A stretch of DNA of 64,000 nt, taken from contig NC_092679.1 in NCBI RefSeq assembly GCF_964355755.1, positions 13,499,432-13,563,431 of the forward strand, written 5' to 3'. A program made the position numbers and the translations under genes. The notes beneath the pieces were generated by a model that did not search any database, was not told the origin of the DNA, and saw nothing but the letters and a program-made list of their open reading frames with translations. This DNA comes from Antedon mediterranea. Its lineage: Eukaryota > Animalia > Echinodermata. Below, piece after piece: positions 10,529 to 44,695 of the stretch. Each line of letters starts with the position of its first letter. Within the stretch, counting starts at the first letter, position 1.

Positions 10529-10671
10529 CTAATCTTTGTCTTGTGATTCAGCTTGCTTTGTTGGTAATACATTGCATGTAGTAGAACTAAGGCCTCTGCA
10601 ATCCAGGTCTAATTTTTCCAATCCTGGAACTTTGTGACGAAACAGAACGTTTTTCTTTTGTAAGAACTCTT
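10529..10671 (-). CDS. Putative terminal coding exon of the DTD1-PAH isoform
   Basis: Acceptor tttcatgttcAG. The phase-1 frame is open for 46 codons (E-EFLQKKNVLFRHKVPGLEKLDLDCRGLSSTTCNVLPTKQAESQDKD*). AATAAA on - at 10408-10413 is weak support in AT-rich DNA. Confidence 0.55.
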
Positions 10672-11077
10672 CTGAACATGAAATTATTTAGTGAGGTTAT
10701 TATAACAACATATCTAGGAAGATCATCAGATATATTGATAAATCATCTCCACCCGATAAGAAACCCTATTGATTGAAACTTAAAGTATCCTTATGTTTTA
10801 CCAGATATGTTACACTATAAAATAAAAAAACTAATTTGGTTGACTTCCAGTAAGGTCCATACATACTGAATTACCTTAATAGATAAAAAACAAGGCATTG
10901 TCATCATTATTATTATGAAAGGTCTAAAACCCTCTAAAAATAAAAAAAAAATCATGTGTAAATGCCACAAAGCATCCCATTAAAAAGGTATGATGATATA
11001 AATAGAAAGATATAATAAAAGGTCAAAGCTTTTAGATCTTAAGTGAAAAAGTTTAAATTTCCCATACAGAAATTTAC

Positions 11078-11099
11078 CTTTGCGAAAGTCAGAGCAGAA
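11078..11099 (-). CDS. Putative 22-nt microexon (FCSDFRK+G)
   Basis: Acceptor ttctacttttctaccacAG, donor AAG|GTaaat. Phase 0 to 1 exactly bridges exon 7 to the long open frame of the 10529-10671 exon. Confidence 0.55.
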
Positions 11100-12569: not shown

Positions 12570-12774
12570 CCGGGTTGCGTCAACATGTTCCTTCAATCTT
12601 TCTAGTGTCATATTAATTGTAGATTGAGGTAGTTGTACACGTACTTGATGTGCATCGTTGTTCTGGACCGAGATGGAATGACCAGAAGGTAGGAATGGAG
12701 AAAACCCACATAGGAGATCTTTATGACCAATGAAATTTTGGCAGATATTTAACATCATTTTGGCAATTGATGTG
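12570..12774 (-). CDS. Putative DTD1 exon 7: C-terminal half of the PAH domain
   Basis: Strong acceptor tttcttttttatttAG, donor CGG|GTAAGT, 205 nt, phase 2 to 0, in frame with exon 6. Encodes STSIAKMMLNICQNFIGHKDLLCGFSPFLPSGHSISVQNNDAHQVRVQLPQSTINMTLERLKEHVDATR, containing the PAH signature F.GH.DL..GF..FLP.G..I. Confidence 0.8.
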
Positions 12775-12984
12775 CTAAATAAAAAAGAAAATGAAATTAA
12801 AATCCATATGTTTCAATAAAAAAAAAAAAGATAAATGCATACATATAAAAAAGAACACTTTATAAATTAATGAACTCAATTTTATAGTAGACTGCAGAAT
12901 TCCAGTAAAGTCTGGTAAAGGGCAACCACTTTACTCATTCCGATAACTATGTTCTTTAACCTTATCATTTTGCCACTAGACTAC

Positions 12985-13986
12985 GGGCCTGTTCAGACCT
13001 ACGGAGTTATGCTTTCGTATTGTACGCGGCGTACAAGTCCATAGGTCTGAACCAGGAAAAGATTAGTGGAAGCCACCTCGTACGACACTGATATTTCGTA
13101 CGCTACGAAAGCTCAAGGTATGAGTTTAGTGGACGTCGCTTACAATACGAAAGTCACGCATCGATGAATATGACCTAGGTTATATATCTAGCCAATCAAA
13201 TTACAATATTCGCCACATCACATCGTGACATGTGCTCCTCATCGTATAGCCAAGCTGATCCATTTGTTGTGATCGGTAAACATGCGAAAAAATCATACCT
13301 TTTGTTTGTTGTTACACTAGGTATACAGTATTATTATTATTAATATTATTATATTAATTAATTTAAAATGTCATCGAAGCGTGCGCATTGGCGAGAAACC
13401 GAAGTAAAATACCTTATTTCATTGTGGGGAAGCCCTGAGTTTAGAGATCGGTTGGAAGTGAAAAACTGGCGTAAAAGCACCGGCAACAAGATGTCTGTGT
13501 TCAACGAGATGGCGGACACGTTAGCAGATGGGCCATCCTCATAATATTAATAAAGAAGGATTTAAATTATATCCAAACGAAATTGAAGGGGTCGTCGTAT
13601 AAAGCGGCGAAAGACCGAGTAAATAAGTACAAGTACGGGATTTGAACATTTTTCTGCCATAAATGATATTTTAGGCCTAGACCAAATATAAACCCAAACC
13701 CCAAAACGATCGGCTGGTTGGTATGCCTGACAACCCATCGATAATTCCGAGCCCAAGTGTTCGGTCTAGGCCTGTAACTCCTACCCCAACCACTACTACT
13801 TTTAATAACAACGAAGGTAGGTCTATACGTGCGTTAGAGTTTGGTTAATCACCAGCGAGTGACATCATATCCGTTTGTAACGCAACTTCGTTGCAATGAA
13901 TCTGAACACTTTGCTCTTACGACACTCATTAAAATATGACCTTGGCTGTGATACGAAAGCATAACTCCGTAGGTCTGAACATACCC
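12985..13986. mobile_element. PIF/Harbinger deletion derivative with truncated Myb/SANT-like ORF
   Basis: ~36-bp TIR GGG(CC/TA)TGTTCAGACCTACGGAGTTATGCTTTCGTAT, flanks TAC/TAT. Internal 58-codon ORF 13368-13544. Confidence 0.85.
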
Positions 13987-14174
13987 TATATAGCTGCTGT
14001 CATGTCAAAAATCATTCTGTGTAATGGCAGAAACACAACATGTTTAATAGGTGCAGTCATTTGGCACATCGTTAAATCAAGAAGTTGTTTTATTGCACAT
14101 TACATAACAACTTTTTTGATGGAACAATTATTATTTGCTTGGCTATGTTGGCAAAACCTGATTCAAACAGAACT

Positions 14175-14503
14175 GGTACAAAACAGACCAGAGTTCTTTT
14201 ATAATACAAAAAAGACCTAAGTTCTTTCATGGTACCAAACAGACCTCAGTACTGTTCTGCTATGGTAAAAAGCAGACCCGAGTTCTTCCATGGTACAAAT
14301 CAGACCCGAGTTTTTCCATGGTACAAAAACAGACCAGAGTTCTTCCATGGTACAGAACAAACCAGAGTTCTTTCATGGTACAGAACAGACCCGAGTTCTT
14401 CCATGATACAGAACAGACCCAAGTTCTTCCATGGTACAGAACAGACCCAAGTTCTTCCATGGTACAGAACAGACCAGAGTTCTTCCATGGCACAAAAACA
14501 GAC
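14175..14503. repeat. 28-bp minisatellite, about 12 copies
   Basis: Unit CATGGTACAGAACAGACC(C/A)(A/G)AGTTCTTC in direct tandem; explains the overlapping ORFs at 14229-14573. Confidence 0.95.
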
Positions 14504-17500
14504 CTACTTAGGTCTTCTTAACTTTAGGAGTCAAAAGTTAAGAAGGGTGGCACAAAATAATACTTTCAAGTAGACAGAAGTTTCTCAAGTCAGGAGCTGG
14601 GTGGAAATATTGAACACATGTGGGTGATTTATCCAACCTCCATCCACCATTAAATTGTTGACAGGCAGATACATGCAATTGGTCCTCCAAAATTCAGAAC
14701 CTCTGAAGGAGGATATGGAGATATTGAAATATTAATGGAAAAAAACTAATGTAGTGACAAAACACTATAAAAAGGATTTAAGTCAGAGGACATCTGTGAT
14801 CCAATGAAGTTGATCCAAAATTCTTTGTATGAAAAACACAATTTCGATGCATGTTTGTAAGAAATCCTGTCTAGATTATTCTATTGCAGTTATTACATTT
14901 TCTTTTCTGCTATAACAAATATGATATAGTTTGGTACAATGTAGAGAAGTTTAGCAGTCATTTGTAATAAAAATTGTTTTATGATTAAAAAAATAGCTTG
15001 CTAAATAATTGCAAATAAAGAAAAGGTAGTTCCTACAGATTAATGACTTTGACATGGATGGTCCTTGAGAATAAAAGAGGTTGTATGTTTGAAATCTACA
15101 CAGCTAATTTTAATTGCAGATGCATGTAGAATGGCAATATAAACTGTGTCATGTCATTAAATGCCCAGGCACCACTTTGTAAGCTTACAATAATGACAGC
15201 TAATATATTTAAAGATATCACAAAAAAGCTGATTGAAAATGTATCAACCTCTTTTCTGATACAACAGTCTCAGAGATCGAGTCACATCATTCATTGCTGT
15301 AAAATTATGTGCATCATTTAATATACTATATTACAAGTTGTGATAACACAATCCAAACATATACGTAAATCATTTAAAAATATATTTTGTGATAGGAAAG
15401 GTAAAAACAGATGATGGATATTTGTTAAAAATTATTCAACGTGATCGTACAGAGGATGCTACAGGGAAAATGTTTGCTTGTGTAGGCAGCAAGTGATAAA
15501 TTTCACTCTTCCCTGGTGTAGAATAACCAAATGCTACACATACTATTTTTTATTCATCGTTCTTGATTCAAAGAACCTAGCGCCAAGATACTTTAAAAAA
15601 AGTATGTTTTACAGTATTCTTCCTTTCAATAGCCCCATCTTTAAAGCTCAGGTACAGGCATGAATTTTAAATATAATATTTGGTTAATTGTACATAAATC
15701 AAATATTTGTAACAGAAATCAAGACGAAAAAACATGAATTTCCCTTAATATGGTCAAATACAAAAGTTAGCAAAATTCTTCCATAAAAACCAGAAAGACT
15801 TTTTTTCAGTAGTAGGTAGTTAACCTAATGTAATATTAAACATGTCTTGTGACTCCCTAGAAGGTGAAAAAAGATGGTGGATATACAGTGGATAATTTTT
15901 GCTATAGCATGAAAATAAAAGTTGAATAAAAATACCAGAAATGTAATATTCAAGTTATATTACCTATATTTAGTCATCTGATAACATTTTTTACCACACT
16001 GTTTATTTTTCATAGCTTTTTAAAATGCCTCTCTATTTACAAAATTTGTGTACAAAAAAATAGAGATTTTACTGTTTAATTTGAACTATCCCCCCACTGA
16101 TAAGAAAGTGCTTATTTTCAACAAGCTCTGTAACACACATAAAATCCCAAAAATTATGAAACATAGGGGAAACTATAGATCGATAATTATTGGAATGTAT
16201 GATCAATAGAAATTTTTTGCCCGCACCTGGCCTTTAAAGTTCAACAGAAATGTCCTAATTTTGAGAATTCAGACCGTGTTCATAATATATTATTCATATT
16301 TGCTTATCAAAACTAAATACAGTATCAAAAAAGATTTTATTTCAATGCAACTGCGTAAATTTGCGTAATCTTAGATGAATATTTTTCACTCGATGTTGCA
16401 TACTGCATTTAAGCAATTAACGAAAGAGATACAAACAAACAAGTTAAGTCTAAAGGGAATTTCTGTAAAAAGATCAAAGTTGAAGTGTATGTACTGTATA
16501 TTATTATCAAGATAGGGCATAGTGTAATCAAATCAATTTTAATTCAGCATACACTAAAGTGATTATGGATTGGCAATGTTATCATTGTGTTTATGCCTAC
16601 AGACTATTAATGGCATTCGTATGTTCCTCATCATCATTTAACTATGTGTTTAAAAGTGGAGGACAAATTAATAAATAAAAAATTATATTTTAAGAGTAAG
16701 ATTCTAAATAGTATTAAAACCACATTGATTGTGTTTTACTTTACTTTGATTGTGTTATTAGAGTAAAGGTTAGTAGTGGGTTGCTATATTTCTAAGCATA
16801 ATTTTGTAGGGCTGTTGAAATAGTAGCCCACCAGCTCACCATCAGTTTCTAAAAATTGTCATTTTTTAGTTATTAGAAGAGCATGAAGAATGAAAGAAAG
16901 AAGACTGTCATGGACCTGTCAAATAGCAGATGACAATCGTAGGCAATGCAGGTAGTAGGTATATTAATAGGCCACTGTCAATTTAAGATAGGTTACCAAT
17001 AGAGAGTGTGGGGTTATTAATAGACAGAAGTTGGGGTGGGGATTATTAAGTAATAGAGGGAAGCAGGAAGGTACAGTATTAATTAGTCAATGTCTTATTT
17101 AAAGTTGGAGATGTTAGGAAACATCTGAACTAAATCAGATTGGGCAACATGACAAATAGTAACACCAGAATACTGGACTTTTAACAGATGATTAACAGAA
17201 AGATTATGCACACAAACACGCATTTAGGATTGAGAAACAACATTTTTTTTTTTACTAAAAAGGCATTTAAAATGAAAGATCATGTTGCTTCATATGCATC
17301 TAGTACTTGGTAGGAACTTACCAGTGTTGAGTGAAGTGAACTGACTGCTGGGCCAAAGAAATCCCAAAGAAAGAGTGACTCCATACAATCTTGACGTGAC
17401 GCATATTGAGTGAAATTGACTGATGAAAACATTGAAACATGTAAGATTTATATGAGTAAATTATGACATCAATAAACAATGACAACGCTTTGTATATCAT

Positions 17501-18437
17501 AGTGTCAATCAAATGGAGTATTGGAAGTCTACACGTCTCTGTTCCTGGCGGAGAACTTTAGTATCTGTGTACCGTAAAACCTTGTAAAGAAACCAATGGG
17601 CTTCTATCTTTAAAACTCTTTAGTTAGACTTCTTTTCGAGATGGGCTTCTTTTCAAGATTACTTTTGCAAACAAAAGGCTTCTTTTTTAAATGAATGCTG
17701 TTCATTGTGTGAATTGCTACTAAAAAAATATGATTTTTGAGACATTCAATGGCAATTTTACATAGTTGGCAAGGAGACAGACAAGAGAAAAAAACCATTT
17801 AGAAAATCAATAAATATTGATTGTTGAGATAATTAAGGATTGTAAGGTCATTAATATCGATATGATAACACGATCATACAATTATTTTCCTTTGACATTC
17901 AAATAACAGTCTATCTTGAAAAGAAGCCCATACAATATTAAAAAGAAGCTAAGTAGACCTGATTTCGAGATGAGCTTCTTTTCAAAACTTTTTCAACCCA
18001 CAGAGGGGAATTTTTTTTCGAGATGGGGTCCTTTTTAGTATACCTTGTAACATCATTGCATACAGTTTTAAATCTAAAATAAGTATGAAAAGAAATTAAT
18101 TAGTGTGCATTTAATGTTTCTTCAAAATGATAAATGCATATTGGATACTTTTAAAAATGAGATATAATATTATAGTGTGTATCACAAAATCAATCAATCA
18201 TGCAATTCAAAAGCCTTTAGTGTTTCTAAGAACTGTGAGTTATGAGTAGCATTAATGATCGATATGATGAAGGTCACATTTTGCCTATTAATGATTTGTT
18301 TGTTTTGTGAATGAATATCTTACAGGAGATGATAAATTAATAGCATGGCTTTAAGATTTTTTCCACAAATCACTGTTATTTTTGCTTAATATGAATTTGA
18401 TTGACATTTTTTTGCCAAATAAAATACTGTAGCTTGA

Positions 18438-19556
18438 ATCATCATCATCAGGCATCCTTCATATCAGTCAAGATTGACTATGGAGATGACATTGGAGAGA
18501 ATTTCATCCGTTTTCCAGTGAGTCTGTGTGAGTTCCAGTGGCTGATCTAGATTTTCTTTTCAGATACCTTTCTTCATTTTCCATACGATATCTTTCTTCA
18601 CTGTGTACAAGTCCTGCCTTCATACAATCTTTCCATGATTTTCGGTCATCAGCCTTTTTTTCCCAGGTGTTAACATTGATGTCCATTGAAGTCTCTTTTA
18701 CATGCATCTTTGAAACGCAAAAGTGGATGTCCTTTGGATCTTTTACAATTCGCTAGCTCACCGTACAACATAACCTTTGGAGTTCTTGTATCGTCCATTC
18801 TTCTGACATGACCAAGCCATAGTAGTCTTCGCTGTCGAATTAATGTAAATATCGAAGTAATGCCACATCTATCAAGGACACCGTTGTTTGTTACCCTGTC
18901 CTGCCATCTGATATTTAAGATAGTCCGGAGACAGCGGAGGTGAAAGACATTTAGTTTCTTTTCTTGTCTAGCATAGGTTGTCCATGATTCAGCTCCATAC
19001 AAGAGGACGCTAATGACACATGCCATATACACTTTTATCTTCACAGCCACTCTAATATTTTATTTTCCCAAACACGTGTAGACAACTGACTGAGAGTACT
19101 AGAAGCTCTTCCGATTCGAATGTTTAGTTCACAATCTAGAGAGTTGTTAAAAGTTATAACTGAACCAAGATAAGAAAATTTACTAACATTTTCAAGTAGA
19201 AAAATGTTGACAGTAAAATTGTTTTGACCAGTTGTTTTAAACGGTAAAATCTTCGTTTTCTTTACACTTATGTTGAGACCAAAGTGTTCACAGGTACATG
19301 AAAATTTATCAAGTAGAAGTTGTAGACCATAAGGAGAATGGCTGCAGAAACAGGCATCCTCTGCATAAACAAAATCATGAAGAAGAACATTAAATATTTT
19401 TGTCTTAGCTTTAAGTCTGGCTGGGTTGTACAGCTTGCCAGTAGATCTACAATGCAATAAAACTCCTTCCATAAGATTAGGTTCAAATGCTCTTTGGAGG
19501 ACGACTGCAAAGTAAATCCCAAAAAGAAGAGGGGCAAGAACATCTCCTTGTTTTGT
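18438..19556 (-). mobile_element. 5'-truncated RTE-clade LINE (RT domain to 3' end)
   Basis: Frameshifted ORFs with KQGDVLAPLLF, degenerate YADD (YAED), FSYLGS, LLYGAESWT, LRTILNIRWQDRVTN, WLGHVRRM; (GAT)n tail at 18438-18450. Confidence 0.93.
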
Positions 19557-22039
19557 GGGTGTGTAGTATATGATCATGGAAAATAATACAACAACCCCTC
19601 CCTTGGGACATCCCTATTTTGGAGACAACCCTATTGAGGGACACTTTCTATATAGTAGTATATGTTTTTACACTGCGACAACCCCTATTCAGGGAACATT
19701 CTTATAATAATGAGACACATTGTTGGGTCCCCTTGAAAAGGAATTCCACTATTATTAGTTGTGCTACCATTTTTTTCCCTGTAATATTTTCTTTTATAAC
19801 ATGGGTTCAAGTACCGTATGTAGCCAATCAGATGCTTTAAACTGATTCACGTGTGCACTCTTTATTTTTTCACTGTCATGCACTGGAGTCTGGAGTGCAA
19901 AAAGTGCACAGCAATAAAGCATACCAGCACTCTGCATGTAAATCGCATTGCAGAATACCGATCGCACTAGGCTGACTGCACAAGCAGGTCGTCTGCACTG
20001 CGGGCCCATTTAAAAAACAAAAAACAAACATTGTATCACCTTGTATATTTTGTCAGACGACTGTTTTTTTATATGACTAGGCTAGCTAGATTGATTCATT
20101 ATGTTGAATTGATTGATTGTATAACAAATTTAAATTACTCAAGAAAATTACATTTCAAATAGTATTTTCACAAATTGATGATTCAAGTTGCTCTTTCAAC
20201 TATTCTTTCATTTGATACTCTCTGAAATTGTATAATCCGTAACAAAATGCAGAAAATTATAATTTCAGATATCTCCATAAAATAATGATAAGGCGGGCGA
20301 GGATTAGTGCATCCTACATGAAAATTACATTTGTAATGAAGTGTTATTTCATCTTGAACAATCATCATTAGCCAACTAATCCGTTGGATTGGGCACTTGT
20401 CAAGTGGCGTGGGATGTTACGCAGCAGAGAGTCTTAGGTTCTGAATAGATGCCTTGTTATCTAGTCTAATGGATAAAAGACCATTACTAATTTAACTCAA
20501 TATTACTGTACATGTGACCAAGGCAATCTCCAGAGATCAAAGGGTTTATTTGTGGCTGCGACATGATCAGATCCACACCCCAGTGTTTTATAATATAGCA
20601 TAATATAAAAAAAACATTATAATTTACTAAAAAATCATTATTGTCACTTCATGAAAAAGCAAAATTCATTTCACATGTATGTAGACTTTCCGTAGTCATA
20701 ATAGTGTTAATTAATTTATGTAATACTGGGTATTTATATTTTGCTCTAAATTTGTTATAATTGTGGCGTGGTGTTAAAATATAAAAGTTGGCAATTACGG
20801 TACATGTATCGTTAAAAAATCCGCACACTATTCTTTATCTCTTTATCGTAAAACGCAATGTACTAGATTTTCACCTAATGATTATCTTTTCGTGACTGCA
20901 CGCTTAACTTGACAGAAAAGAACTCATCATCTTCAGATACGAAACAGAGAAGGCAGAATTAGAATTGATTTAAGTTGAGGCTAAACTCTAACGCTGATTG
21001 AAAATAGATTGCTTTTCGATGAAGAGAATAATTTTGTTATTAAATATTAAATGACGCTATCAACTAGAACGTCAAGTTTGCACGTACAGCCTATTTTATT
21101 ATTGTCATTATATTGTAAAATGAACTAGGTAATTTTCAATCTACAAATTACTTTACTTTCATTTTTTTGTCCACTACTTCTAATCATACGTGAAGTGAAG
21201 AAGAGAATTGGCAGCGCTATTGGAATTTCACCGCAGGGGATGGTTTATGAGAGCCACCCTCAATTTTTTATTTTGTACGCAAGAATATTTTTTTCGTAAA
21301 CTGAACTTGCATTAGAACCATTATCACCATTAGATTCACTTTTTTGTGCACATGATGCTAACTTAACCAATCAAATTGCAAGGACATACTATTAAGGTGT
21401 TATAGTAGATACATTGGCATCTGGGTTGTTTATGCGGCTATATTCAATTCAGTTCAGAATTCTGAGTACAAGCCTCAAGGCTCAGAGACCTTGAATCTCT
21501 TATATATGTCTTCTTGTAAGTAACATTAACTTGGATTTAAAAGGCATAGTGTACAAGGTTTGATCTGGGCGAAACCATCACTAATGCACAACAACATGAT
21601 AATAGTGCTCTTGGGAAACACAGACCTTTCAAACCAATTCAAATTAAACTCGCATAAAATACTCTACAAAGAGTATACGCTTTTTCTACGGCAATTACAG
21701 TTGTTGGAATTAGGCCAAGAAACTTCGGGCAACATACAGTAAAACAAATAAAGATTATTAAATGAAGTATATGAAGAAAAGTTGATTACTTCTCAGACTC
21801 AACTTATATACAGTATTTTGTTCGATATTTGTGTTTCATTTTCACTTTTTCAAATTTATTAACGTGAACAAAAAGCGGTCAGCTTTTCCATTTCCAAATC
21901 ATTTGCTGTAGTGAATTCTAGTCCCTTGAGCTTTTAATGAAATTGGTACTTTTCATAGCTTTTCTTCGTTTTTAAAGTGAACATTTTTGTAACCAATCAG
22001 TCGAGCCCGGAAAATTCACTCGTTTAATCATATTTACCA

Positions 22040-22236
22040 AAAGTCTTTAGGCACATGGCCAAGGATTATCAATAGTAAATCACTATTAACTCCTTAATCA
22101 TACTGGACCTACGTTTTATAGTCCTTATCTGAGAAGACTTTTCCACAACCAGAATTATGATCGAGTCGCCATCGAACCCATGCCGATATTGTTGGCTCTT
22201 TAGTTACGGTAATTGGCGTCCCTGCCTGAAATTAAC
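22040..22236 (-). mobile_element. tRNA-derived SINE copy
   Basis: Reverse complement resembles the 8627-8915 element (TGGCCGAGTGGTTAA...AAAGAGCCAACAATATCGGCATGGGTTCGA). Confidence 0.7.
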
Positions 22237-22584
22237 CACTCGGCCATTTCACTCACGCCTTACTATTGCTAATATAAAGTGGATCTACACTTTGAGCTGA
22301 TTAATCATCTATGAAAATATTCTACCCACGACATTGAAATGTGAAATTTTATCTTTAAAATCAGAGATTGCACAAGTTTTTTCCATCTCATTTACATTAA
22401 AATGCCAATCCTAAAACATGTTTTAAGCCCAATGGCAGCTTTAAAGAGGTATTGTAGACACGTACATGTTAACATTTGAAAGAGAAATAGTGGTAGAAAT
22501 TTAACGTCAGAAAACTTGGCAAATGCTCTAAGTTTAAATAATACAAAATGCATAGCCTCCAGTCTATGATGATTCTTACACTTA

Positions 22585-23511
22585 CGCCCGTATTCTTAAA
22601 CCGGACTTTAGTCGTAGTTCGAGCTAAAACTAAAAAAATGACGTCATTTTAATTCATAAACCGAACTTCAACTAAATCACCGACTAAATCAGGCCAACCT
22701 CGACTAAATCGAGACGGATTTTGATCGATTTTTTTAGTCCTTGAGGGGGCAGACTAAATGGTCGACTAAATGTTTTTTAAACGATGTTTATAAAAAACGT
22801 AACAGTCATTGAGTTGTTATATTGGCCAGATATTGAAGAATGAAATATCTATATTTATATTAGCTTAATTAAATATACATTGGTATAAATTATAATAATG
22901 AAAATCATCTTTATTTACAACTGTATACAAATTACATTATTTTCTTCGCGCAAGTCCGACTTGAGCTACGTCACGCCATAGCGACAATGGGAGATGCGGC
23001 AATTCACCACGCGATGGAATGTTTAGGGGGCCTAGCGCTTTCTTGTCACGCTATGAAGTGCGTGGTTCGTGGCGATCATACTTTGTTGGGGGCCTAGAAA
23101 ATATAAAAGTTACCGTACCGCCATGGTTCCTAAATATATTTTGAAGATTTTATTTGTTGTTAATCAAATATACTTCACTGTTAAATTAATACTGATATTG
23201 TTCTAATAATTAACGATTAAAATTATTTTTCATGTATATAGTCCTGATGCGTAAAAAGTGTTGTAAGAAATGGAAAGTGATATCAATGCGCAAAATTTCG
23301 TCTGCTCCTCAAATACTCTCTTGTCATTGGCCAATGTATAGCCTTTGTTACCCAGACGTGTGCAACTCGACTAAAAGCTCGACTTCATTAAGTCGAACTG
23401 CAAACTTCGACTACTTCGTTTTTGAATCGAATTTGAAGTAATAGCTCGAACTACGACTTTTCCAAGTCGAACTTCGAACTACGACTAAAGTCCGGTTTAA
23501 GAATACGGGCG
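22585..23511. mobile_element. Harbinger/Tourist-like MITE
   Basis: Perfect ~38-bp TIR CGCCCGTATTCTTAAACCGGACTTTAGTCGTAGTTCGA, TTA target-site duplication, subterminal CGACTAAA repeats. Confidence 0.88.
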
Positions 23512-23959
23512 TTAGTGTCATTACATTTTGACAAATTTGTGAAATGGTTCCAACATACAAGAAAAACAATCATTTCTTATTTTCAACAAAAGCGGTAAGA
23601 ACCGCCACTTAAAATCATATTAATAAAAGTGGTAGACTACCATGTAAGTCAATACATAGAATGTTGTTTTCTCATACATCCATTATCAGTATGCCGATGA
23701 TTAAGATAAAAAGAATTATCTGTATTATTTGATTTTATCTATAAAAGGGTGCGCTCATATACCCTGTAGAATTGTACAGAATCTTTAATAAAATGCCTTG
23801 GGTAAACCTGATAATGTATCAAAGTGATTATTAAAGAAAAAAAGTTACTTTACACATTCAATATTACACTAGAATTTCATTACTAAAAATCAAACCCAAA
23901 AATCGATGTTTATCAGTGCAACAAACACAACATTTTAATTCAATTAAAAAAACATTGAT

Positions 23960-24880
23960 TTATAGTACATTCAAAAGACAAGTAACAAAAACAATAATGG
24001 CAAGAGATATTTTATAAAATGGACAAAGGCAGGATCCCAAAACGATGAGAATCTTGTGGTGGGATTGCTTTTATAAATTAATTAAAAATAGATATTTATG
24101 AAAAAATAAATAAATTAATTAAAAATAATGAATATATAAATTATTAATACCGGTAGATAAAAGTTGAAAAAATTAAGTAAAAATGATGAGCAGAAAAAAG
24201 TACAGCTGCAGGGCATACTGTAGTAATGAAAAAGATGACAAAATGAATAAATTAAATCTAGCAAGTCACGGAACGAGACAAAAAGTGATTTTTAATTTTC
24301 TTGGAGAATGAGTAGCAGGTGGCAGCACAAGAAATTGAGGGGGGTAAATTGTTAAAGATAAGTGGTCCAGAATATCTAATGCTGTGTTAAAAATAGTTGG
24401 ATAGGGATAATAAATGTTATAAATGTTGTGTCATATTTATGGTATTATTGGAAACGAAAGGGTTGTAAAAAAGACAAGGGAGAATGGAGTGAGTAGCCGA
24501 AAAACCAAAATCACCTTGCTGGGATAGGTTAATGTCTGAGAGTTTAAGAAGATTGAGTTTGAAAAATAAATGGGAGAAAGGCGATAGCTTTTTTTTGTAG
24601 AATAGAGAGTTTATTGATGTTTGTTGGGTAAATGTTGGCCCAGAAAATAATACCATAGCTCAAATGAGAAAGGATGAGTGTGCAATAAAGGGTTTTGAGA
24701 ATACATAAGTTAGAAGGAAGGAAGAAAGCCTAAAAATGATCCAAAATTTTTAAGACACCTTGATTTCAATTTTCTGGATATGAGAGGCAGTTGTCGATGG
24801 TAACGGCAAGAAATTTAATAGACTTTACAGAGAGGATTTTATGATTATTAATAATGATTTTAAGTGGGGACACATCAATG
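23960..24880 (-). mobile_element. Degraded LINE (L2/CR1-group) 3' fragment
   Basis: Minus strand retains SIRYSGPLIFNNLP-type C-terminal motif amid stops and frameshifts; boundaries approximate. Confidence 0.6.
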
Positions 24881-29415: not shown

Positions 29416-29429
29416 CTCTTTGTGAAAAT

Positions 29430-29981
29430 TTAGTAAATGCTCAACGGATGTTAAGATTACTTTGTTTAAGTCATACTGTATTAGTATGTATTGTGCGGCC
29501 TTATGGTGCGATTTTAATGTAAAAACTATGAAGTCATTACAGGTCTGTTATAATAACGCATTTAGAAAGATTTTAAAACGCTCAAGTTGTTTGTTTGTTG
29601 TTAAGTTAACCATGTTCCATCCTTCTATGAGTACATTCGGAACTCAATTTTTTGTTTCAAAACAAAAATTGAAAAAAGCTGTAATACTTTAATAACATGT
29701 GTTTTTTCTCGAATTCTAAAATATTCAAAGTTGCACAGAAAATAGATTGAACTTCTGTATACATAAAGTTCATGTATACCTTTACGTATGTTAACTTGTT
29801 ATCAGTATAACCATTATAATGTTCTATCACTCCAGTTGAAAACCGACGGTTTTCCGACGGCATTATGATGTGCGACATGTGGTATAGATGTTTTTACTTA
29901 CTTACATTTATTTTTTGAAATATTGTTATGTGTTATGATATGGACTTTGTTCTGAAATAAAAGTGAATTGAATTGAATTGA
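29430..29981 (+). mobile_element. LINE 3' fragment
   Basis: LFKSYCISMYCAALW...LQVCYNNAFRKIL is a post-RT LINE motif; ends with AATAAA plus (GAATT)n tail. Confidence 0.75.
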
Positions 29982-30149
29982 AAAGCGCCGTATTTTGACT
30001 GATACCCTTTAGGGAAGAAGCATGTAGTGTAAATCTAATAAATGAGTCCACATATTATTTGTAATACTTGTAATTTAATATAAGGCACAATAAAAATAAT
30101 GTATACTGTAAAGATAAAGGTGAGTACCGTGTTCCCTGAACGTAGGGGA

Positions 30150-30350
30150 ATGAGCTGTTAGGAGCTCATTGTACTAAGCCTCGGCATTATGTGGTAGGGT
30201 GGCCAGTTCCTTTCCACGCCGCCTTTTTTCTCCCTAATATTTTCAACCAGGTACTCATTTACAGCTGAGTGGACTGGGAGTTGTCGGGAATTGAACCCGG
30301 GTCTATCTGTATGACAGTCAAGTGTGCTAACCACTCGGCTATCCAACTCA
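30150..30350 (-). mobile_element. tRNA-derived SINE, second family
   Basis: Minus strand has A box TAGCCGAGTGG, B box GGTTCAATTCC, then CCACTCAGCTGTAAATGAGTACC, a central-domain-like motif common in invertebrate SINEs. Confidence 0.7.
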
Positions 30351-33300
30351 TGTATACTGTAATGTAATTTATTCAATCAAATTTCTGATTGTAGGCCTAA
30401 CAAATTGGATGAATAAAATATTTCTTATCTTATCATACCAAGCTGGCGACAGGTATTCTAACATTAACACTATAACAGAAAAATAAAATTAAATTGAATA
30501 GAAATTATAGTGAAGATTAATACTAGGAAAAACATTTTATTCTTTGTTAATTTCAATTTTTCAACAACTTCTACAAATGATATGATCTGTGACAAATGAC
30601 ATGAGCCAGAAGCTACAGAATTTCTCTGTAAGTAACGCAAGTATGCAGGAAACGTGTACCGCATTTATTTTTTTATTATTTTATTTATTAATTTAGCATC
30701 CATTTAACAAAACATTTAAAATATATAACAAAGAAAAAAAAAAAAACAATTGGAATATTAAAATTGAATAAAACCAAAGTGAATGGATGCAAGGTCAATT
30801 TATTTCCAATGGGGTAAATTTCAGGAGAAATCGGAGATGTGAAAATGAACAAGGATCATAAGACAGCAAGTCGCTTAAAAACCAGAACAAATCCATATTA
30901 AACTTTAGAAAAGACATCTGTAGAACACCCACAAAACTTGTTTAAAACTGTGAATTTTAATCTTGATACTTCTTAAAATAATAGTGTTTTACTAATAAAT
31001 GACAGAGTGGCATTTAGCATGAACCCATTAGAGAAAAATACTTATTATTTTAATGGTCTGATGGATACAAGTGGGCGTTAAAAAAGTAGTGTTTTTTTGT
31101 GTATGAAAATGTAATGTGTTGTACAGTATTAATATGTTGTTCAGTATACCTGTAGTTGGAATGAGGGTATTGGGACACTATAAAGGGAACATTTTCCTGT
31201 AACAATAAAAATGTAACACTACAGCCTACAGTACCCTTTCAGGGGACACGCTATTAGGGGGCACTTGTTGGGTCCTGAAGGTGTCACCTTAATAGGGGTT
31301 CTGCTTCATATAGCTTATTGGTAACTGTTAATTTTTATTTTATTGCTCAATCTTATAGTTTAAAGTTTCCTATTTTTGTTTAAAGTATTTTTTTTTACTT
31401 GAGTTTAAATCTAACCCTAGCCAACACAGAGACAAGAGTCTAGAAGGACAATAAGTTACTTTAAGTCTCATCCAAAAACAACTTGGAAATTTTGTTCATG
31501 TTATACTGTACTTTTAATACAACAAATTCTTCACGCTTTTGACCTTACTGTCTGGATTGGTTTAGAAGCTAGTTGAAATTAGCCTTCTTATCCAACCAAC
31601 CAATACAAAATAATTCTTAAACTAATAATTCCCTTAAAATCTCAAAAACAAAACAAAAAATCAAAGGGATAAATGTGTTTGTTTAGGATGACTATAACTT
31701 GCACATGATGGTATTACATATTTCAAAAGCAAGGGACTTTTTAAAAATTTTCTGTTGAATGAATGTTGTTTAGAGTAGGAAGTGTTGTTAATCAGAAAAG
31801 CAACATCCGAAGGCGTATTGTAATTTGCACAGATTAATCTATTCAAAGTAAAATTAACAATAGAGAGACATACTGAAAAAATGTCTCTATTATACTGTAA
31901 AGTATAACACACTGACTCTATCCTTGCCATGTGATTCTATCTAGCTGCAACGTTAATAGTAAATTACAATCTGGCCGATGGTAATAAACTGTTGAGAACC
32001 ACTGGCCTTTAAAGCATTTGACATTTGATTTTAAAATTTCTATTCACACTGCTGACATTTTTTTAAAAACTAAAACATATATCATATGCAAAATAATGAT
32101 AATGTGAAGAGTCATTATTGCTGTACTTTTTTTCTTTTGTTTATATTAATCAATAGTACCTCCCAGAAGCTTGGAAACTTAAAATGTGCAGCTGCGGCGA
32201 GCTGAGTTTTACTTGACTATACAGATCATACACACCTATATCTATGTCATTTGATTGGTTAATTTCATATCAAGTATTATGACACAGCCGATTATATTCT
32301 TGCAATTTGATTGGTTAATTATACGTATTACGTGTCATTTTTAATTAGCCCTACCTAATAGAAAAGAAATATGTAATAGTTATAATTAACACGCTCTAAT
32401 GCACATTCACTTTTTGAGAAGTTTTGCGTGGCGATATGGTTGATTAATCGCACTCGGAAAAATTGGTTGGTTGTGCGCGCCGTATATAATTTTTTTGAAC
32501 GATTGATAATATTAATAACCTTCCCACGACCTGTACATCCTCTCCTTCCTCAAAAAGGGAAGATCCAAACAAAGCTAAAGTGTCGGGCTATGGTAGAGTT
32601 ACTGAATTACAAAATGTCTGTTCACTAATGGCCAGTCGTGTGTCCTCAAGAGAAGCACTTACCTACTCTATTTAGCTTCATAAAAAATAGGACTACTAAC
32701 TGCAACAGATTAAAATGTAATCAAGTATAATAAGAACTGGGTTAAGAATTTAAAACCTCTTTATTTTCTAACTCAAGTGACATATAAACCAACTGTAGAG
32801 GGGGCCAGACAATTACAGATAATCAATGCTAAACTAGATCATGTCCAATAATAGTTGTATGGATTTAATAGCATGATATAAACACATTATACGAAACAGC
32901 ATGCTTAAAAAAGACTAAATAGGTTAGATTATCTGACTATGCACTCCCACGCAAAAAGAGACCAGGTATCTTAAACGAACATATAGTGTTTGTCTGGCTT
33001 TTTAGTAATCGCTACATGATGCCACATTTACTTTTATATTGTACTAAATATGGAGGTGTTGCATGTTAGAATATGGTAACGAAAAACAGTACATAATTTT
33101 TAATCTCTGTTTCATTCGTCAAAATGTATTCATTTTGGCAAGGTCAGATCAGATTTTGAAAAAACAAAAATATAACAATCTTCGGACTGGAAGGAAGGGG
33201 AATCCTTGAACCGTTCAAAATGACCCGGATCAATAGATGACGCACACAAGACATATTTTCACCGGGCATCCTCTGCCTAAACCACCACTGATCGGCAATA

Positions 33301-33859
33301 AGATAAGGAAGGAGAGGAGGATCCCACAGATGTTAACAGCGCGGATCCCTTCCTGGGCAGCCCTATGAGTGTGCTGGTTACTTTCCAGTACTTGCGTTTT
33401 ATTCGGGAAGATGTTCGCTAATGGCTTTAATTGCTGATCATCTCGGAGCCGATTCTTAGCAGCCCGGGGTAATAACTTTTAATTCAGAATTAGATGCTGA
33501 TAATTTGCAAATTCACTCATCAATACAGACTGTTTGTCAGACCAAAAAGGGGAAGGGAGATGGGGGAATGAAGGGATTAAAAGCAATATATAAACAAACC
33601 TGACATGTGTATTCTCTTGTTGAAGTAGAGTTTTAAGTGCATTTTTGGCTTAGAATCTCACCTCACAGATGGTGAGCTATTGTCATGTAACTCAGACGTT
33701 GTAGTTTACGCTGAGGCATAATAAAGCTTTGAACAAGAATGACAGCAACAAGCGGACACGGTTCACAGCACAGTCCACCTGTTTAGACGCCCGTGCCACA
33801 CAACACTCAAATTAATTTGCATTCATCACTCTCTACCATTAAATAAAAATATATTTTAC

Positions 33860-34020
33860 CTTTTATTTTTATAATTGTTCAGAATTCGAAGTAGTTTTGC
33901 TAGACAATCAGGCTCTTCTGAAAATGCTGATGATACTTTTTTAATGTAATTCCTAGTCTTCTCTGTTGTTCTTTCCTTTGGTTGTGCTTTAACAACAGCA
34001 ATTGGAGTTTTTGATCCAGC
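33860..34020 (-). CDS. Putative DTD1 exon 6: linker plus N-terminal half of a PAH domain
   Basis: Acceptor ttttgtattcatctaaaaAG, donor AG|GTaaaa, 161 nt, phase 0 to 2. Encodes AGSKTPIAVVKAQPKERTTEKTRNYIKKVSSAFSEEPDCLAKLLRILNNYKNK, matching the PAH helix 1-2 pattern Y..KV...F...P......L.I...(F/Y)K. Confidence 0.75.
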
Positions 34021-38100: not shown

Positions 38101-38133
38101 TAATGAGGAAATTCCTCAGCGATCGTTGGTTAC

Positions 38134-41100
38134 CTTTCTTTCTAGAGTTGACGGTTTCTTTGGCGTCTCTTCAACAGCATCTGCAATGGGCGAGTCAATT
38201 TGTATTGTGACTGGACCATCATTTTCTATATGGACTTGCATATAAGCACCAAACTGACCATCTAGTAAAGTAATCAAAATATTAACAATCATCTAGCAGT
38301 TTGTTTCATTACAACAAAATCATGATTTTAAGCTTTGAAAATGTCTTTACACGATGGGTTCGGTCCGGTGCCCTGAGAAAAATATCATGGAAAATGGGTT
38401 TAGTGGTAAAGCAACCCTCTTAGTGCCACGGGCGGCGTTAGAAACCCCATTTAAGATCGTTCACACCAAAATCCGTACCAGTTTTGAACAGTGAGCATGA
38501 TGAACTTGTTTGACACGCTCAATGCTCACAATATTTTTCTGAGGGTGCCGTACCGAATCCGGACGCTATGTGAAAGCAGCTTTAGGGTTCCTCGCTCCTC
38601 ATTTGTACAACATGGACTGAGATGGAATAGAACAGTGGATGTTGAATAGCGAATCTCTCAACTTATGAAAATATACTGCCCATTCAACTCATAAACATTC
38701 ATACTAGTATTAAGTATTTTTGATTTAGCTTTTTGCTTATTTTGTTAGTATCTCTACACAGATCCAGCCACTGATACTCATAGCAGCATTTTCATTTTTT
38801 CAGTAATTTGATTTATTATATAATTATTATAATATATTTTTTTAGCTCTGACAGAAAAATGATCAACACATTGTTATCCTTTTATACTCATTGGGATATA
38901 AACTCAATATAAGTTATTTATGTACTGTGTACACATGACCAACAGCTTTTACATTTAAAGAGAGAATTTAAGTATCTTGCCCAGGATAAAATCAATGGGA
39001 CAGACATGCTAGTCATACCTTTCAAGCCATACTCTTAAATATGACAATTATTAATAATAGTACAGGATAAATCTAAAATGTTCACAACATCTTTCAAAAA
39101 GTGTTTTTTTATATTAATCTTGGAAAAAGATTGATGAGTCTTAATACCCACCTACTCCCACAAATTGCAAATAAATATGCATGCTTGTTGTATTTAAAAT
39201 AACTTTATATTATTTGCAACAATTATATGATGTAAAGAACATTAATTATCCCTCAAAAAATAAAATACATTAGTAGAACCTTAAAATTAAGGGGACACAT
39301 TGAATAGAGGTTGGCCAATTAAAACATATATATTTGCCTCATTCATTTCATGAACACCTGAATAAGAGATCATGTCCCAAATGTCCAATTCTTCAGATAA
39401 ACTTGGCATACATTTTTAGATAATATTTTGCATCCTAATCTGGTGACTTCATAGAAAATTAAAATTATTCATGTATACAGTGTACACAAAAATAAAAATC
39501 ATAATATTTTTTTTATATGCCTCTAATAAAATTTGTGTACAAAAGAATAGGGAAATAACTGTTTAATTTATCTAATAAAAAAAAAATCTGTAAAGCACTG
39601 TCTACACTATCAGTATCAAACTAGTTTGTGTGATATGTCCAAGTATGGTAGTGATATTACCAAATATGATAGTGGTATGACATCATCATGTCCATATATG
39701 GGCACATCACAATTTGTTTGTCACATAAAGTTTGATAATGTAGACAAGGCTTTACATAGGGGGGGGGGAGGGGAAGACTATAAATCGATAATTATTGGAA
39801 TGTATGATCAATAGATTGTTGCAAATGTGACACCTGCTCTTTAAGATGATCACTTCAATATCTTCTGTCGCTCCTACACATTTTTCTAAATTTACCTTTG
39901 CATCATCTGCCTTAATATTAGACTGAAATAACTTTTTTTCGTTAGCAACATTAATTAACAATGCAGAGGGTAATTTCCTTTTATTTTCAAATAGTGAGTT
40001 AAAATAGTTACATATCTAAGTTTAGAATCGCACAAATGGCCAGATGGTAAATAGATAATAGTTTTTAAACAAAATTATTAATAATAATAGTAATCACCAA
40101 TGATACATTTACCAATGGTGACCCATTAAAAGGAAAATTGAACTGACTTTATAAAGATATATTGCCCCCTGAAAAAATAATCAAGCACTTTTTTTAATAT
40201 GCCATTTAAATGTAACATATTTACACTTACAGTATTTAATTTGACAAAAAAACTGTAGTTTTGGGATGAATTTAACCATTTATTTGATTTTTTAAAGTGA
40301 AATCACTATTTGTTCGTTTTTTTTAAAGGAAATGAATAACTTTATTAAAACTGCAAAATGGCATATTCAAAGTCTGATTATATTAATCTTCAGCCTTATA
40401 CAAATAGCATAAACTATACCTTTGATCAATTCTGGTTTATAATCTTTGCCTAATAGTTGTAGAAATTCTTCATAAAACAGTTTTGATTTTTCTCCTGGCA
40501 TAGCACAATGGAAGTCTGGTTTATTTCCCTTTAGAATTGCGTATAATGTGAACTGCAAAGAAAATTGGACATGCTATTGAAAAAATGATAGTTTGTTGTT
40601 GTAGTAGATGCAGAATTCACATTCACATCGCCTAACAAACTCAAGAGTGTTTTCCTCAATATGCACATAGCTCGCGGCATCCATGACAACAAAATTCCCT
40701 AATGATGTACGAGCGCGCGCAATCAGATGGGAATATGAACTAAATCCGGACCGGACCAGGTGTGGAAGAACAATATACAAACGTTGTTTGGAAGTTCACT
40801 CTGGAATGGCCTACTGTACCTGAATGAATTAAGAAAACAAAACAATTACAACCGTTTTAAATCACTTAAGATTCATTTAAGTGAATTGTTACCGGTGGTC
40901 TAGGATGGTTGCAGTGAAAATAATTAAATAAAAATGGTATAAAAAGTTATAATTAATAATGAGATTGAGAACATGCTTTGAATTGAAGTTTAGTTTCAGT
41001 TTAAGTTGTTTTAAAATTATGTTTAAATGTGCCGTAGGGCCCGTCGGAAGAGCAGTTTTATTTTATTACTGAGAGGGCTACCCTACTGAAAGAAAACGAA

Positions 41101-44100
41101 ATAAAAATAAAACCATCATGTCGCTATAAACTATGTTCAAAAGCAAATATGTTTAATTATATAATATTATATTATATATTGTATTCTTGCAATTAATTGG
41201 TTTATCACATGTCATTTGGAACTAGCCCTACCTGTGATAAGTGATAATGCGTTCTAATGCATGTAGTTTTCAATAAACATTTTGAGAATTTTTGCTATGC
41301 GATCATCAGTTAACTGTAATCAACTTGTTGTGCGCACTGTCTATAAATGTTCTAATCCATGTCTAAAGTTAGAGCCCTGCCTTTTAAATGGCCTAGGTTC
41401 CAGCCTAGCATTCCTCAATGATTTACAATGGATAAATTGAATAAGGTAGGTGTGTAATTAAACAAATAATGAATGTTTTTTATTCGTTGGTTGGAGAGAA
41501 TATTTAATTGGAAGAGAAATTGACTGCTCTATTTCAACTCGGCTTCCGCCTTGTTAAAAATAGAGCAGCCAATTTTTCAATACATGAAATATTCTCACAT
41601 CCAAATCATAAAACATTCATTATTTGTATACCAAACATGTGCATTAGGAAAAACCCTGGCACTACAGACATATAGACAAAGTTAATAATGTAATACCATG
41701 CTACAGTGCACTAACCTTACCTGACTAACACATAGAATTTCAAACTGCTTGTCTTTGACACTTTTACACCATCGTTTACCACCATCGTCATCAAATACAC
41801 GCAAATTTAAAACCTTTCTTGCACTGAAAAAAAACTCAATTAAATGTTAAAATACTGAATAAAACTATCTGTAACACATAGCCTTTATTATAGACCATTG
41901 CTATACCGTGGTCTAACCTGTAAAATTAAAGCCTCCTCAAAAGAAGTCTTGAACTGTCTTAAACCTCTGTTTATGTCAACATAGCATCGCCGATACAGAC
42001 CTTGGTATTATTTATTGTGAAATACAATGTACAAGACATTGAACAAGTTTGGATGATGCATAATAACGATGATCTTATATAGAAAGATAGATTTTCTCAC
42101 ATAGAAACGTATGTACTGTTTTTGTGGCTTGAGCAAGCATGACAAACATTACCTTATTTGGTATTCTACACAAACAGTGCGCCCTCAATTTGTCACTTTT
42201 CACGGCCTTAGCGAAGACTGTTTTATAGCAATGGTCTAACAGTGGTGGCTTTAATAAGACCATCTATCTGATAAAGTCGGCTTTAATCGGGGAGTTAAGA
42301 CCATCAGTTAAGACTGTTTTATAGCAATGAACTAACAGCGGTGGCTTTAGTAAGACCGTCTATCTGATAAAGTCGGCTTTAATTGGGGATTTAAGACCAT
42401 CAGTTAAGACTGTTTTATAGCAATGGCCTACAGCGGTGGCTTTAATAAGACCATCTATCTGATAAAGTCGGCTTTAATCAAGGAGTTAAGACCATCAGTT
42501 AAGACTGTTTTATAGCAATGGTCTACAGCGGTGGCTTTAAGACCATCTATCTGATAAAGTCGGCTTTAATTGTCAGTTAAGACTGTTTTATAGTAACCCG
42601 CTCCTGATCATTACTTACATGTATTCTCTTTCTTTAGGTGTATCATCTTTTGTAATTCCTACCAGAACACATAATCCACGTCCAATTGAACTCACCAGTT
42701 CACCACCAACTAAAACATGAAAGTACTGTATGTTAAATAGGAAAAACTGAAGACATAGCAGGGTTTGAGACTAGTTAAGCATCTCTACTTGATATTATGC
42801 ACAATTTCAATTGTATGACGCACTATACAACCGGGAGAGGTGAATAATTTGTCTGATGTTGTTTGTGCTTCATACTTATGTATGACCATGATGCACACCT
42901 GCATAACAAAAATACTTACCTTTAAGTGAGAAAGGCGAACACATTTTAAAACTAGAAAGCCACTCCGAGAGGGCATACCTCCGCCTACTGTAAAATTCTC
43001 CTACATAAGATTTCTCCGGTAAAAAAAAAAATATATATATATTTGTGTGTGTCTTAATGCTGTTTGTGATTTAGGCTAATTTCATTACAAGCATGTGTAT
43101 GCGAGTTTGGTGTAATGGTTATGTAACAAGCCTTTCAATTAACAATAGCTTCAGTTGACTAATAATAGAACAGCAACGCGAAAATCAAACGAGTGAATTT
43201 GAAAAGAAATAGGTTTTTTAAACTACTCGCATCAAAAAACGTGCACATTAAATCAAATTATGTTTTAAAATTACAAATCACAAATTCTAACTCTTGCCTC
43301 TTGTTAAAAAATGAAGTTTTTTGGACAAGTAGTTCTCGAGAAAATGCAATTTCAGTTTACTTGTTACTTTAAGACTGCTCGCCGGCTTTTGAAAAATTCT
43401 GTCCTATCTTTTAACACTAGCAGGTCTAAAAAAGTATAATAAAAAGTGGTCCAGAATTGGGACTGTGGTCCCAAAATTTAATGGAATGGTCCTTGACCAC
43501 ATATCTATCTGTCTATTCATTTTGGTAAAGATCTTGTAATTACTTTGAGTAATCCTGCTAACAAACAAACAAACAAACACACGCTACCGATTACATATAC
43601 CTCCTTGGCGGAGGTAAATTAGTAACGGACCGTAAAGAACAATGACGCACCATGACTCTCCCTTTGACGTTTCTTCAATGATTAATATTTGTCCAGGCTT
43701 GGCCCGTGGTGAGTGATGGACATTGACTCACCATTTAGATTTTTCGGACTCGCCGAGATACGAATTCAAGATCTTGACAACAGGGTACTGTACTCGCTAT
43801 GTATTTTGTATATTATTATTTAGAGATTTTCAAAAATGTCATGTGTGTATGTACTATGTTTGATGCTCAATTTGAAATTGCGGCTTGAAATTGCGCAAAT
43901 CGTTCAAATTGTGCACAACATACATACTGTACATGCATAGACTAAACCCACAATAACATTTTCAAGAAGAGAATCAACCCTCCTGGTTCCATATCCTCAT
44001 CACTAGCTACACCACCAGCTCGTCAATCGAATCAAAAAAATATAATATAAGCCTACATCACATATTGTAAGTAAGCATTTTACCTTTAACCGACCAATCA

Positions 44101-44484
44101 GAACTGAGAGTTGACGTCTTGCTCTACTCAAATAAATGTATTCGATAGATATCCACTTCCGTGCATACAAAGCCTCTCACTAGATTTTTTTACTGAGGGG
44201 TGTTATATTATAAGACCATACCATACTGACAAGTAAGAGCATGCAGGTGAGGCAGCCAGAGTGTGGGCTGGGCTGATCTGATTGATGGATGCTGATCAGT
44301 CTGTCTGGCTGACTGACTGACTGAGTCCATATGCATGGAGGGAGAGGTATTATACCTCCATCATATGGTGAGTCTGTGTCACTAAAAAAATCAATTAAAC
44401 TAAATCCAGTGAGTGAATTTTTCGTTCTTATTTAACGTTACCTGATACACTGGCCTTCGTGACACGTTGTATTACTACTTTCAT
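38134..44484 (-). CDS. DTD1: D-aminoacyl-tRNA deacylase 1, catalytic exons 1-5 (44442-44484, 42619-42709, 41721-41823, 40420-40552, 38134-38261)
   Basis: GT-AG exons with compatible phases splice to MKVVIQRVTKASVSVGGELVSSIGRGLCVLVGITKDDTPKEREYIARKVLNLRVFDDDGGKRWCKSVKDKQFEILCVSQFTLYAILKGNKPDFHCAMPGEKSKLFYEEFLQLLGKDYKPELIKDGQFGAYMQVHIENDGPVTIQIDSPIADAVEETPKKPSTLERK. The DTD family motifs SQFTL and NDGPVT (Gly-cisPro) are intact. Exon 5 ends in a phase-0 donor with no stop codon. Confidence 0.96.
38343..38582. mobile_element. Degraded MITE
   Basis: Inverted GGTTCGGTCCGGTGCCCTGAGAAAAATAT / ATATTTTTCTGAGGGTGCCGTACCGAATCC; ends approximate. Confidence 0.55.
39594..39753. mobile_element. Short (~130-160 bp) MITE family member
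   Basis: TIR-like CTGTCTACACTATCA / TGATAATGTAGACA. Further copies at ~47060-47190, ~50390-50517, ~61233-61370. Confidence 0.75.
41458..41630. repeat. Palindromic non-autonomous element (Crypton-like, tentative)
   Basis: Imperfect foldback ACAAATAATGAATGTTT ... AAACATTCATTATTTGT with a central hairpin around CAACTCGGCTTCCGCCTTGTT. Confidence 0.5.
41887..42606 (-). mobile_element. Truncated Harbinger-like MITE with an internal ~96-bp tandem expansion (~4 units, 42214-42600)
   Basis: Reverse complement of the 45164-45693 element; unit AAGACTGTTTTATAGCAATGGTCT...GACCATCAGTT repeated. Confidence 0.85.
43150..43618. mobile_element. Helentron-associated (HINE/DINE-1-like) non-autonomous element, tentative
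   Basis: (ACAA)n microsatellite followed by terminal hairpin ACCTCC-TTGGC-GGAGGT (43599-43615); left boundary uncertain. Confidence 0.5.
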
Positions 44485-44676: not shown

Positions 44677-44686
44677 TGCGCATGCG
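44677..44686. promoter_or_regulatory. NRF1-like site
   Basis: TGCGCATGCG matches the NRF1/Ewg core GCGCATGCG. Confidence 0.55.
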
Positions 44687-44695
44687 TTTTTGCTT

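Follow-up and report, generated by a model that had tools for sequence, protein, structure and literature searches.

A 64,000-nt stretch of the genome of the crinoid Antedon mediterranea (contig NC_092679.1, positions 13,499,432 to 13,563,431), referred to below as the window, carries on its minus strand a gene in which DTD1, a small housekeeping enzyme, is extended in frame by a PAH domain of the Sin3 type. To our knowledge, PAH domains in animals are found almost only in Sin3-type scaffolds. We consider this DTD1-PAH fusion to be real with little room for doubt, and the same fusion was found in at least 11 species. A Pfam scan of the A. mediterranea RefSeq protein detected both halves, namely Tyr_Deacylase (PF02580; 181.9 bits at a cut-off of 25) and PAH (PF02671; 22.7 bits at a cut-off of 21.3, E-value 7.9e-05), as the preliminary description of this DNA had anticipated. 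The base composition of the window is 33% G+C, and an open frame of 288 codons runs through seven exons on the minus strand, all with AG/GT ends:

44442..44484, minus strand: DTD1 coding exon 1, 43 nt, with the ATG and the conserved Arg7, equal to residues 1-14 of the RefSeq protein
42619..42709, minus strand: DTD1 exon 2, 91 nt, phase 1/2
41721..41823, minus strand: DTD1 exon 3, 103 nt, phase 2/0, in which the SQFTL motif begins (Pfam Tyr_Deacylase, E-value 1.9e-07)
40420..40552, minus strand: DTD1 exon 4, 133 nt, phase 0/1 (Pfam Tyr_Deacylase, E-value 1.6e-07)
38134..38261, minus strand: DTD1 exon 5, 128 nt, phase 1/0, with the NDGPVT (Gly-Pro) motif and a linker, ending in a donor with no stop
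33860..34020, minus strand: exon 6, 161 nt, phase 0/2, with a conserved TP[IV]AVVK motif and PAH helices 1-2
12775..33859, minus strand: intron 6, 21,085 nt, phase 2, which interrupts the PAH domain and contains a reverse-transcriptase fragment
12570..12774, minus strand: exon 7, 205 nt, phase 2/0, with PAH helices 3-4, a predicted beta-hairpin and an extra helix
11078..11099 and 10529..10671, minus strand: exons 8 and 9 of the preliminary description, an open frame to which orthologues give no support and which is probably not in the gene

The join at the center of this gene, which had been proposed from the sequence of the window, was reproduced: exons 6 (33860-34020, 0/2) and 7 (12570-12774, 2/0) have AG/GT ends and extend the frame that leaves DTD1 exon 5 at its phase-0 donor (38134), while exon 6 contains no in-frame ATG and is preceded by an in-frame stop about 12 codons upstream of its acceptor. 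Using exon 7 as query, one protein was identified among four candidates, the 331-aa A. mediterranea RefSeq product (held under two accession numbers), whose residues 1-288 are identical to the seven-exon frame. Between exons 5 and 6, six further candidates for a phase-0 acceptor were inspected by eye and none resembled a coding exon. In two sequencing runs covering positions 30000-45500 the introns were covered as in DNA and no exon-exon joint occurred among the best-supported rows, which is neutral evidence. Reading through the exon 5 donor (38116-38133, minus strand) adds five codons before a stop (171 aa), and a short DTD1 isoform lacking the PAH domain is possible by this route.

Neither exon 6 nor exon 7 gave a PAH match when scanned singly with Pfam, and no further PAH-like exon was found within the window. 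The 67-aa stretch that had been aligned by hand to Sin3A shows gap-free alignments with the PAH1 repeats of four Sin3 proteins, with 20, 21, 21, and 23 identities, and the expected four-helix bundle is predicted by AlphaFold2 (helices 181-198, 205-217, 223-233, and 238-243; predicted local distance difference test, pLDDT, 84-88). The best fold matches of the tail model are Sin3 PAH domains, and it superposes on Sin3 PAH1 (2CZY) with a root-mean-square deviation (rmsd) of 1.5 over 68 columns; in Foldseek the same model returned nothing at an E-value of 0.001 or below, the best match being 2CZY at 0.014. Searching the ESM Atlas with the tail retrieved PAH clusters with scores under 0.9, and searching it with an acorn-worm protein gave no usable feature match and, by structure, only a chordate DTD1 cluster.

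The 3′ end of the preliminary model was not borne out. Its nine exons and 342 aa do yield an open frame when reassembled, but the last 54 aa have no match in 13 fused orthologues (best E-value 3.7). The RefSeq protein ends instead in another tail of 43 aa, which is 91% identical to that of Anneissia over residues 289-312 and 76% identical over residues 313-325, and which is not encoded anywhere within the 64,000 nt. Because this tail is conserved in Anneissia and absent from the window, the true terminal exon most likely lies to the left of window position 1 and is reached from the exon 7 donor. With the C-terminus mis-modelled, a conserved terminal helix had therefore been missed.

To determine the distribution of the fusion, the full-length protein was used in a search that yielded 466 matches, of which the best 120 (limited to 182-580 aa) are considered here. 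Ten of these 120 cover 88-100% of the query and belong to two crinoids, two sea stars, a sea cucumber, a brittle star, two acorn worms, and two proteins from Logan assemblies; a precomputed PAH annotation stands beside the DTD domain in seven of these ten, and PF02671 is annotated in none of the other 110 DTD1 relatives among the best 120 (vertebrates, amphioxus, Lingula, molluscs, fly, corals). Pterobranchs, xenacoelomorphs, and tunicates were not among the named rows of this search, and no search was aimed at them. Three more species, Holothuria leucospilota, Patiria miniata, and Asterias amurensis, are represented among cluster members and bring the fusion to the minimum of 11 species given above. 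Our own Pfam scan of 20 proteins detected PAH in 12, of which 11 reached the cut-off (with up to 51.5 bits), the remaining eight being five outgroups and three sea-urchin models. One Logan protein (P0003) is identical to Strongylocentrotus purpuratus DTD1 at 166 of 171 positions and groups with sea urchins at 99/99; judging from this kinship the fifth echinoderm class, the sea urchins, has the fusion too, so that all five classes are represented. A different DTD1 fusion was observed in a JGI record (P0085; 411 aa on a 1,590-nt contig, three members), with C-terminal annotations of PF21972 and PF00043 (glutathione S-transferase-like); it could reflect either a genuine connection to synthetase-complex scaffolds or an assembly chimera.

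Whole fused open reading frames of 318-329 aa are present on Logan contigs of 1,731-1,830 nt; since the Antedon exons span 32 kb, we infer that these contigs represent spliced transcripts. Truncated database proteins from a sea urchin, a sea cucumber, and sea stars break off where the donors of exons 5, 6, and 7 lie, and for this reason the intron positions appear to be common to several classes. The fusion is lineage-specific, as had been suggested, only if the lineage is taken as echinoderms together with acorn worms and not as this one species. Nor is the architecture new to databases: RefSeq and UniRef already contain DTD1-PAH proteins, most of them labelled “uncharacterized” or “DTD-like”. 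It is present there but apparently undescribed: we found no description of it in the open full-text literature, a scope outside which most subscription papers fall, and the word deacylase is absent from the text of a review of PAH proteins (PMC7948954), whose Figure 2A of PAH architectures could list the fusion.

The enzyme half retains the motifs and the fold of a DTD. Residues 1-149 are 68% identical to 2OKV (DTD1/DUE-B; structural Z-score 19.9), the SQFTL and NDGPVT motifs occur in all 13 fused proteins, Arg7 is seen in the Antedon protein, and the enzyme halves are 70-93% identical to each other. SQFTL and NXGPVT with its Gly-Pro dipeptide are the active-site motifs of DTD, a family of homodimers with a cross-subunit Gly-cisPro that hydrolyse D-aminoacyl- and Gly-tRNA (passages in PMC5802732). 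Because both motifs and the high identity are kept, the enzyme half has likely remained active as a D-aminoacyl-tRNA deacylase and, by analogy with known DTD biology, is likely dimeric.

In order to trace the PAH half, a sample of 149 Sin3-like proteins was assembled, of which the 65 with three repeats and at least 900 aa were used for repeat scoring. The core profile of the fused PAH domains scored best on repeat 1 in 64 of these 65 proteins (mean 61.0, 50.6, and 10.3 bits for repeats 1, 2, and 3), and similarity to Sin3 reaches beyond PAH1, into the hairpin that follows and, weakly, on the upstream side. The tail profile also matched the PAH3 region of Sin3 weakly (20.8 bits), which was judged to be a repeat match and not the source of the terminal helix. 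In a representative search 4,065 proteins were retrieved at an E-value of 0.001 or below, and among the best 150 one was the fusion cluster and none of the other 149 contained a DTD domain. Six proteins seen in that search (P0132-P0137) contain 4-6 PAH-like repeats, above the count that canonical Sin3 gave there.

A tree of 35 PAH rows and 66 columns, in which PAH3 was left out and Sin3 was represented by 12 hand-chosen proteins, set PAH2 apart at 97/93 and placed the acorn-worm copies amid PAH1 and the echinoderm copies on a long branch; a larger PAH tree did not settle the echinoderm copies between PAH1 and PAH2. In both phyla a TP[IV]AVVK motif precedes the PAH domain and a terminal helix follows it, and this common layout, a better argument than the trees, leads us to favor one origin. 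The PAH domain was likely copied from Sin3 PAH1 in the last ancestor shared by echinoderms and acorn worms, two groups that separated more than 500 million years ago. Exons 6 and 7 form a phase-0/0 pair, which fits the requirement of exon shuffling, and the single origin would have come about by copying such a pair from Sin3. The PAH-internal intron (codon 220, phase 2) is at a position equivalent to Sin3A residue 158, where human SIN3A may have an intron as well, although this was not found in print. A human SIN3A intron after c.366 (codon 122, phase 0) is given in a passage of PMC9816327; it maps to residue 184, where the Antedon gene has no intron.

For the analysis of the binding site, the 26 positions that are invariant in 63 Sin3 PAH1 repeats were compared with 11 fused proteins. 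Eleven of these positions, mostly in the fold core, are kept in at least eight of the 11 fused proteins, two are kept in 5-7, and 13 are kept in four or fewer. The pocket Ala and a basic residue of Sin3 PAH1 contact SAP25, as stated in a part of PMC8115148; the equivalent of this Ala (Ala126) is kept in nine of 11 fused proteins and the equivalent of Lys155 is Lys or Arg in eight of 11. Our reading is of a PAH domain that retained its fold and a site while its specificity changed, and that likely acquired a capping helix of its own.

This helix is the last element of the AlphaFold2 model, in which the four PAH helices are followed by a hairpin, a helix at 277-288, and a linker predicted to be disordered (pLDDT 30-50); beyond it, residues 314-328 form the terminal helix, with a pLDDT of about 80-88. 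The linker is long and poorly conserved; the helix is amphipathic with a conserved hydrophobic face, and its motif (hydrophobic-x-E-hydrophobic-hydrophobic-x-x-L) is shared by the 11 proteins aligned, E318 and L323 being invariant among them. The same motif, which was drawn from the fusions, occurs in one of the 149 Sin3-like proteins. Two models, the second built like the first on a shallow alignment, superpose on the C-terminal domain of CCM2 (4YKC) out to the terminal helix (Z-scores 8.0 and 7.4, within the range of 7-8 that is common for helical bundles; rmsd 4.0 and 3.4 over 90 and 88 aligned residues), while a shorter CCM2 chain of the harmonin-homology domain (HHD) aligns to the bundle only. 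The models also superpose on small compact domains across their first and last helices. As the superpositions extend to the terminal helix, it is predicted to pack back on the PAH bundle.

From these data we propose, with a probability of about one half, a self-capped docking mechanism on an active DTD1 with a re-tuned PAH domain. The dimer would, by analogy with other DTDs, display two PAH modules, each of which would bind short amphipathic helices. Its own C-terminal helix would fold back on the PAH domain, in a self-capped hub of the CCM2 kind by lying in the ligand cleft between helices 1 and 2, and gate access for a partner helix, which would displace the cap and thereby localise or regulate the enzyme, the partner probably being outside the usual ligand set of Sin3 PAH1. 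A wider version, which we regard as doubtful, is an Ambulacraria-wide invention in which the partner helix switches the dimer into a nuclear or regulatory complex and links tRNA quality control to co-repressor networks.

Several observations weigh against the proposal and the history behind it. The docking depends on two models whose alignments were shallow and overlapped (14 and 11 rows; predicted template modelling scores of 0.46 and 0.66). The Ala126 equivalent is Thr in both crinoids and the Leu127 equivalent is lost in all 11 fused proteins, and from such substitutions the cleft may be reshaped or closed. The PAH tree splits the acorn-worm from the echinoderm copies, with a single origin not rejected (approximately unbiased test, p-AU 0.15), and a tree of the DTD domain (27 rows, one dropped for a variant motif) is poorly resolved at depth (p-AU 0.167). 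Finally, no PAH domain is present in the models of S. purpuratus (174 aa) and Lytechinus pictus (245 and 761 aa), which diverge at the exon 5 donor; this speaks against a uniform presence of the fusion and possibly reflects a short isoform or a local loss in sea urchins.

Other functions of the terminal helix were weighed against self-capping. It could act in trans, on Sin3, an export receptor, or the PAH domain of the other subunit or of another dimer, and leave its own PAH domain open; such a short motif would be SID-like (Sin3-interaction domain), LD-like, or export-signal-like. Its position after a long disordered linker resembles that of trans-acting hub ligands, which passages of PMC7788954 describe as hydrophobic, acidic helices, and it has the helical LxxL core that PAH1 ligands need according to part of PMC6168491. 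Both models nevertheless predict that the helix packs on the bundle, and it lacks the small residues that PAH1 SIDs also contain (a table in PMC7948954), so that we consider action in trans unlikely. Somewhat less probable again is a closed structural domain in which the helix fills the cleft permanently and the module serves stability, spacing, or a new surface interaction instead of exchangeable helix binding. Retention of the fold core (11 of 26 positions in at least eight of 11 proteins) while 13 of 26 positions drift, and new conserved hydrophobic or Cys positions at 228 and 242, would suit such a domain, whereas an exchangeable site would better explain the long variable linker and the retention of the pocket Ala and the basic residue.

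Two further explanations concern the ligand and the gene model. The preliminary description suggested a SID decoy or a tether to nuclear regulators, in which the PAH domain binds the repressor helices that Sin3 PAH1 binds, such as the SIDs of SAP25, Tet1, and REST, and either competes with Sin3 or brings DTD1 to chromatin. With the loss of so many PAH1-invariant residues (13 of 26 in four or fewer of 11 fused proteins) the decoy is weakened, and in a crude scan a basic cluster was present in the tail of one of eight fused proteins; although PAH1 ancestry, the pocket Ala in nine of 11 proteins, the 29-32 of 67 identities that acorn-worm copies retain to a Sin3 PAH1, and the reported presence of vertebrate DTD1 on chromatin would agree with it, the same preprint states, in part of its text, that vertebrate DUE-B is dispensable for replication (bioRxiv 2025.06.17.658125), and we rate this explanation as a long shot. 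That the fusion is an annotation artefact, with DTD1 ending near exon 5 and the PAH exons being a separate gene or dead copies, is hardly credible. Such an ending could use the read-through stop at 171 aa and the poly(A)-like hexamers 0.7-1.3 kb further, and the S. purpuratus model does end at the exon 5 donor; the identical join in 11 species and in short Logan contigs, an exon 6 without a start codon, and a PAH region 61-68% identical to Anneissia all argue against it.

Upstream of DTD1 and head to head with it lies a CFAP70-like gene (45725-54000, plus strand), whose candidate ATG, located by eye at 45725, is 1.24 kb from the DTD1 ATG and whose tetratricopeptide-repeat exon (53432-53683) matches CFAP70 with an E-value of 4.8e-25. 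Retroelement-like fragments were found in intron 6 (18673-19613, minus strand; RVT_1, E-value 3.1e-06) and in intron 7 (11332-11844, plus strand; ALKBH8_N, E-value 5.6e-06). A repeat element was recognised by eye both in DTD1 intron 2 (about 41880-42600) and in the intergenic gap (45165-45690), and two tandem arrays lie at 14162-14570 and 46470-46960.

Retention of the fusion over all five echinoderm classes and the acorn worms would point to selection on a non-catalytic role of DTD1. The tail that vertebrate DTD1 acquired is a different one, and its part in replication is currently disputed (bioRxiv 2025.06.17.658125, in part); a second tail with a recognisable binding fold offers a testable handle on that non-catalytic role in embryos of sea urchins or sea stars. 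The fusion is also a candidate molecular marker for Ambulacraria (echinoderms plus hemichordates) and a case of a hub domain that would have left its scaffold and changed its specificity.

With Sin3 PAH1 (PF02671; 2RMR, 2RMS, 2CZY) the Antedon protein shares the domain and also similarity in the hairpin region that follows; Sin3 consists of tandem PAH repeats with HDAC-interacting and C-terminal domains, whereas the fusion has one PAH domain and no other Sin3 domain. PAH has been reused outside Sin3 in another host protein, plant WRKY19 (an excerpt of PMC7948954), and the PAH domain of a further host protein, ZNF598 (PF23202), was represented by weak PF23202 matches in our scan of 20 proteins. 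The Animalia-specific tRNA deacylase ATD (5XAQ) has the DTD-like fold in common with the Antedon protein (Z-score 16.2, 21% identity) and carries PQATL and TNGPYTH (a passage of PMC5802732), where the Antedon protein has the DTD motifs instead. The tail of vertebrate DTD1 is about 60 aa of low complexity (part of bioRxiv 2025.06.17.658125), in contrast to the tail of about 180 aa in Antedon, which comprises a predicted folded PAH domain, a hairpin, an extra helix, and the terminal helix. The closest parallel to the proposed capping is the C-terminal adaptor of CCM2 (4YKC), an alpha-alpha-hub with a tail helix, to which the Antedon models align over the whole length between the first PAH helix and the terminal one, both included; the CCM2 domain is an HHD and not a PAH domain, no sequence kinship is shown, and the comparison is one of analogy only. 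In that system, studied by Wang et al. in 2015, the tail helix reportedly occupies the MEKK3 site and is displaced from it.

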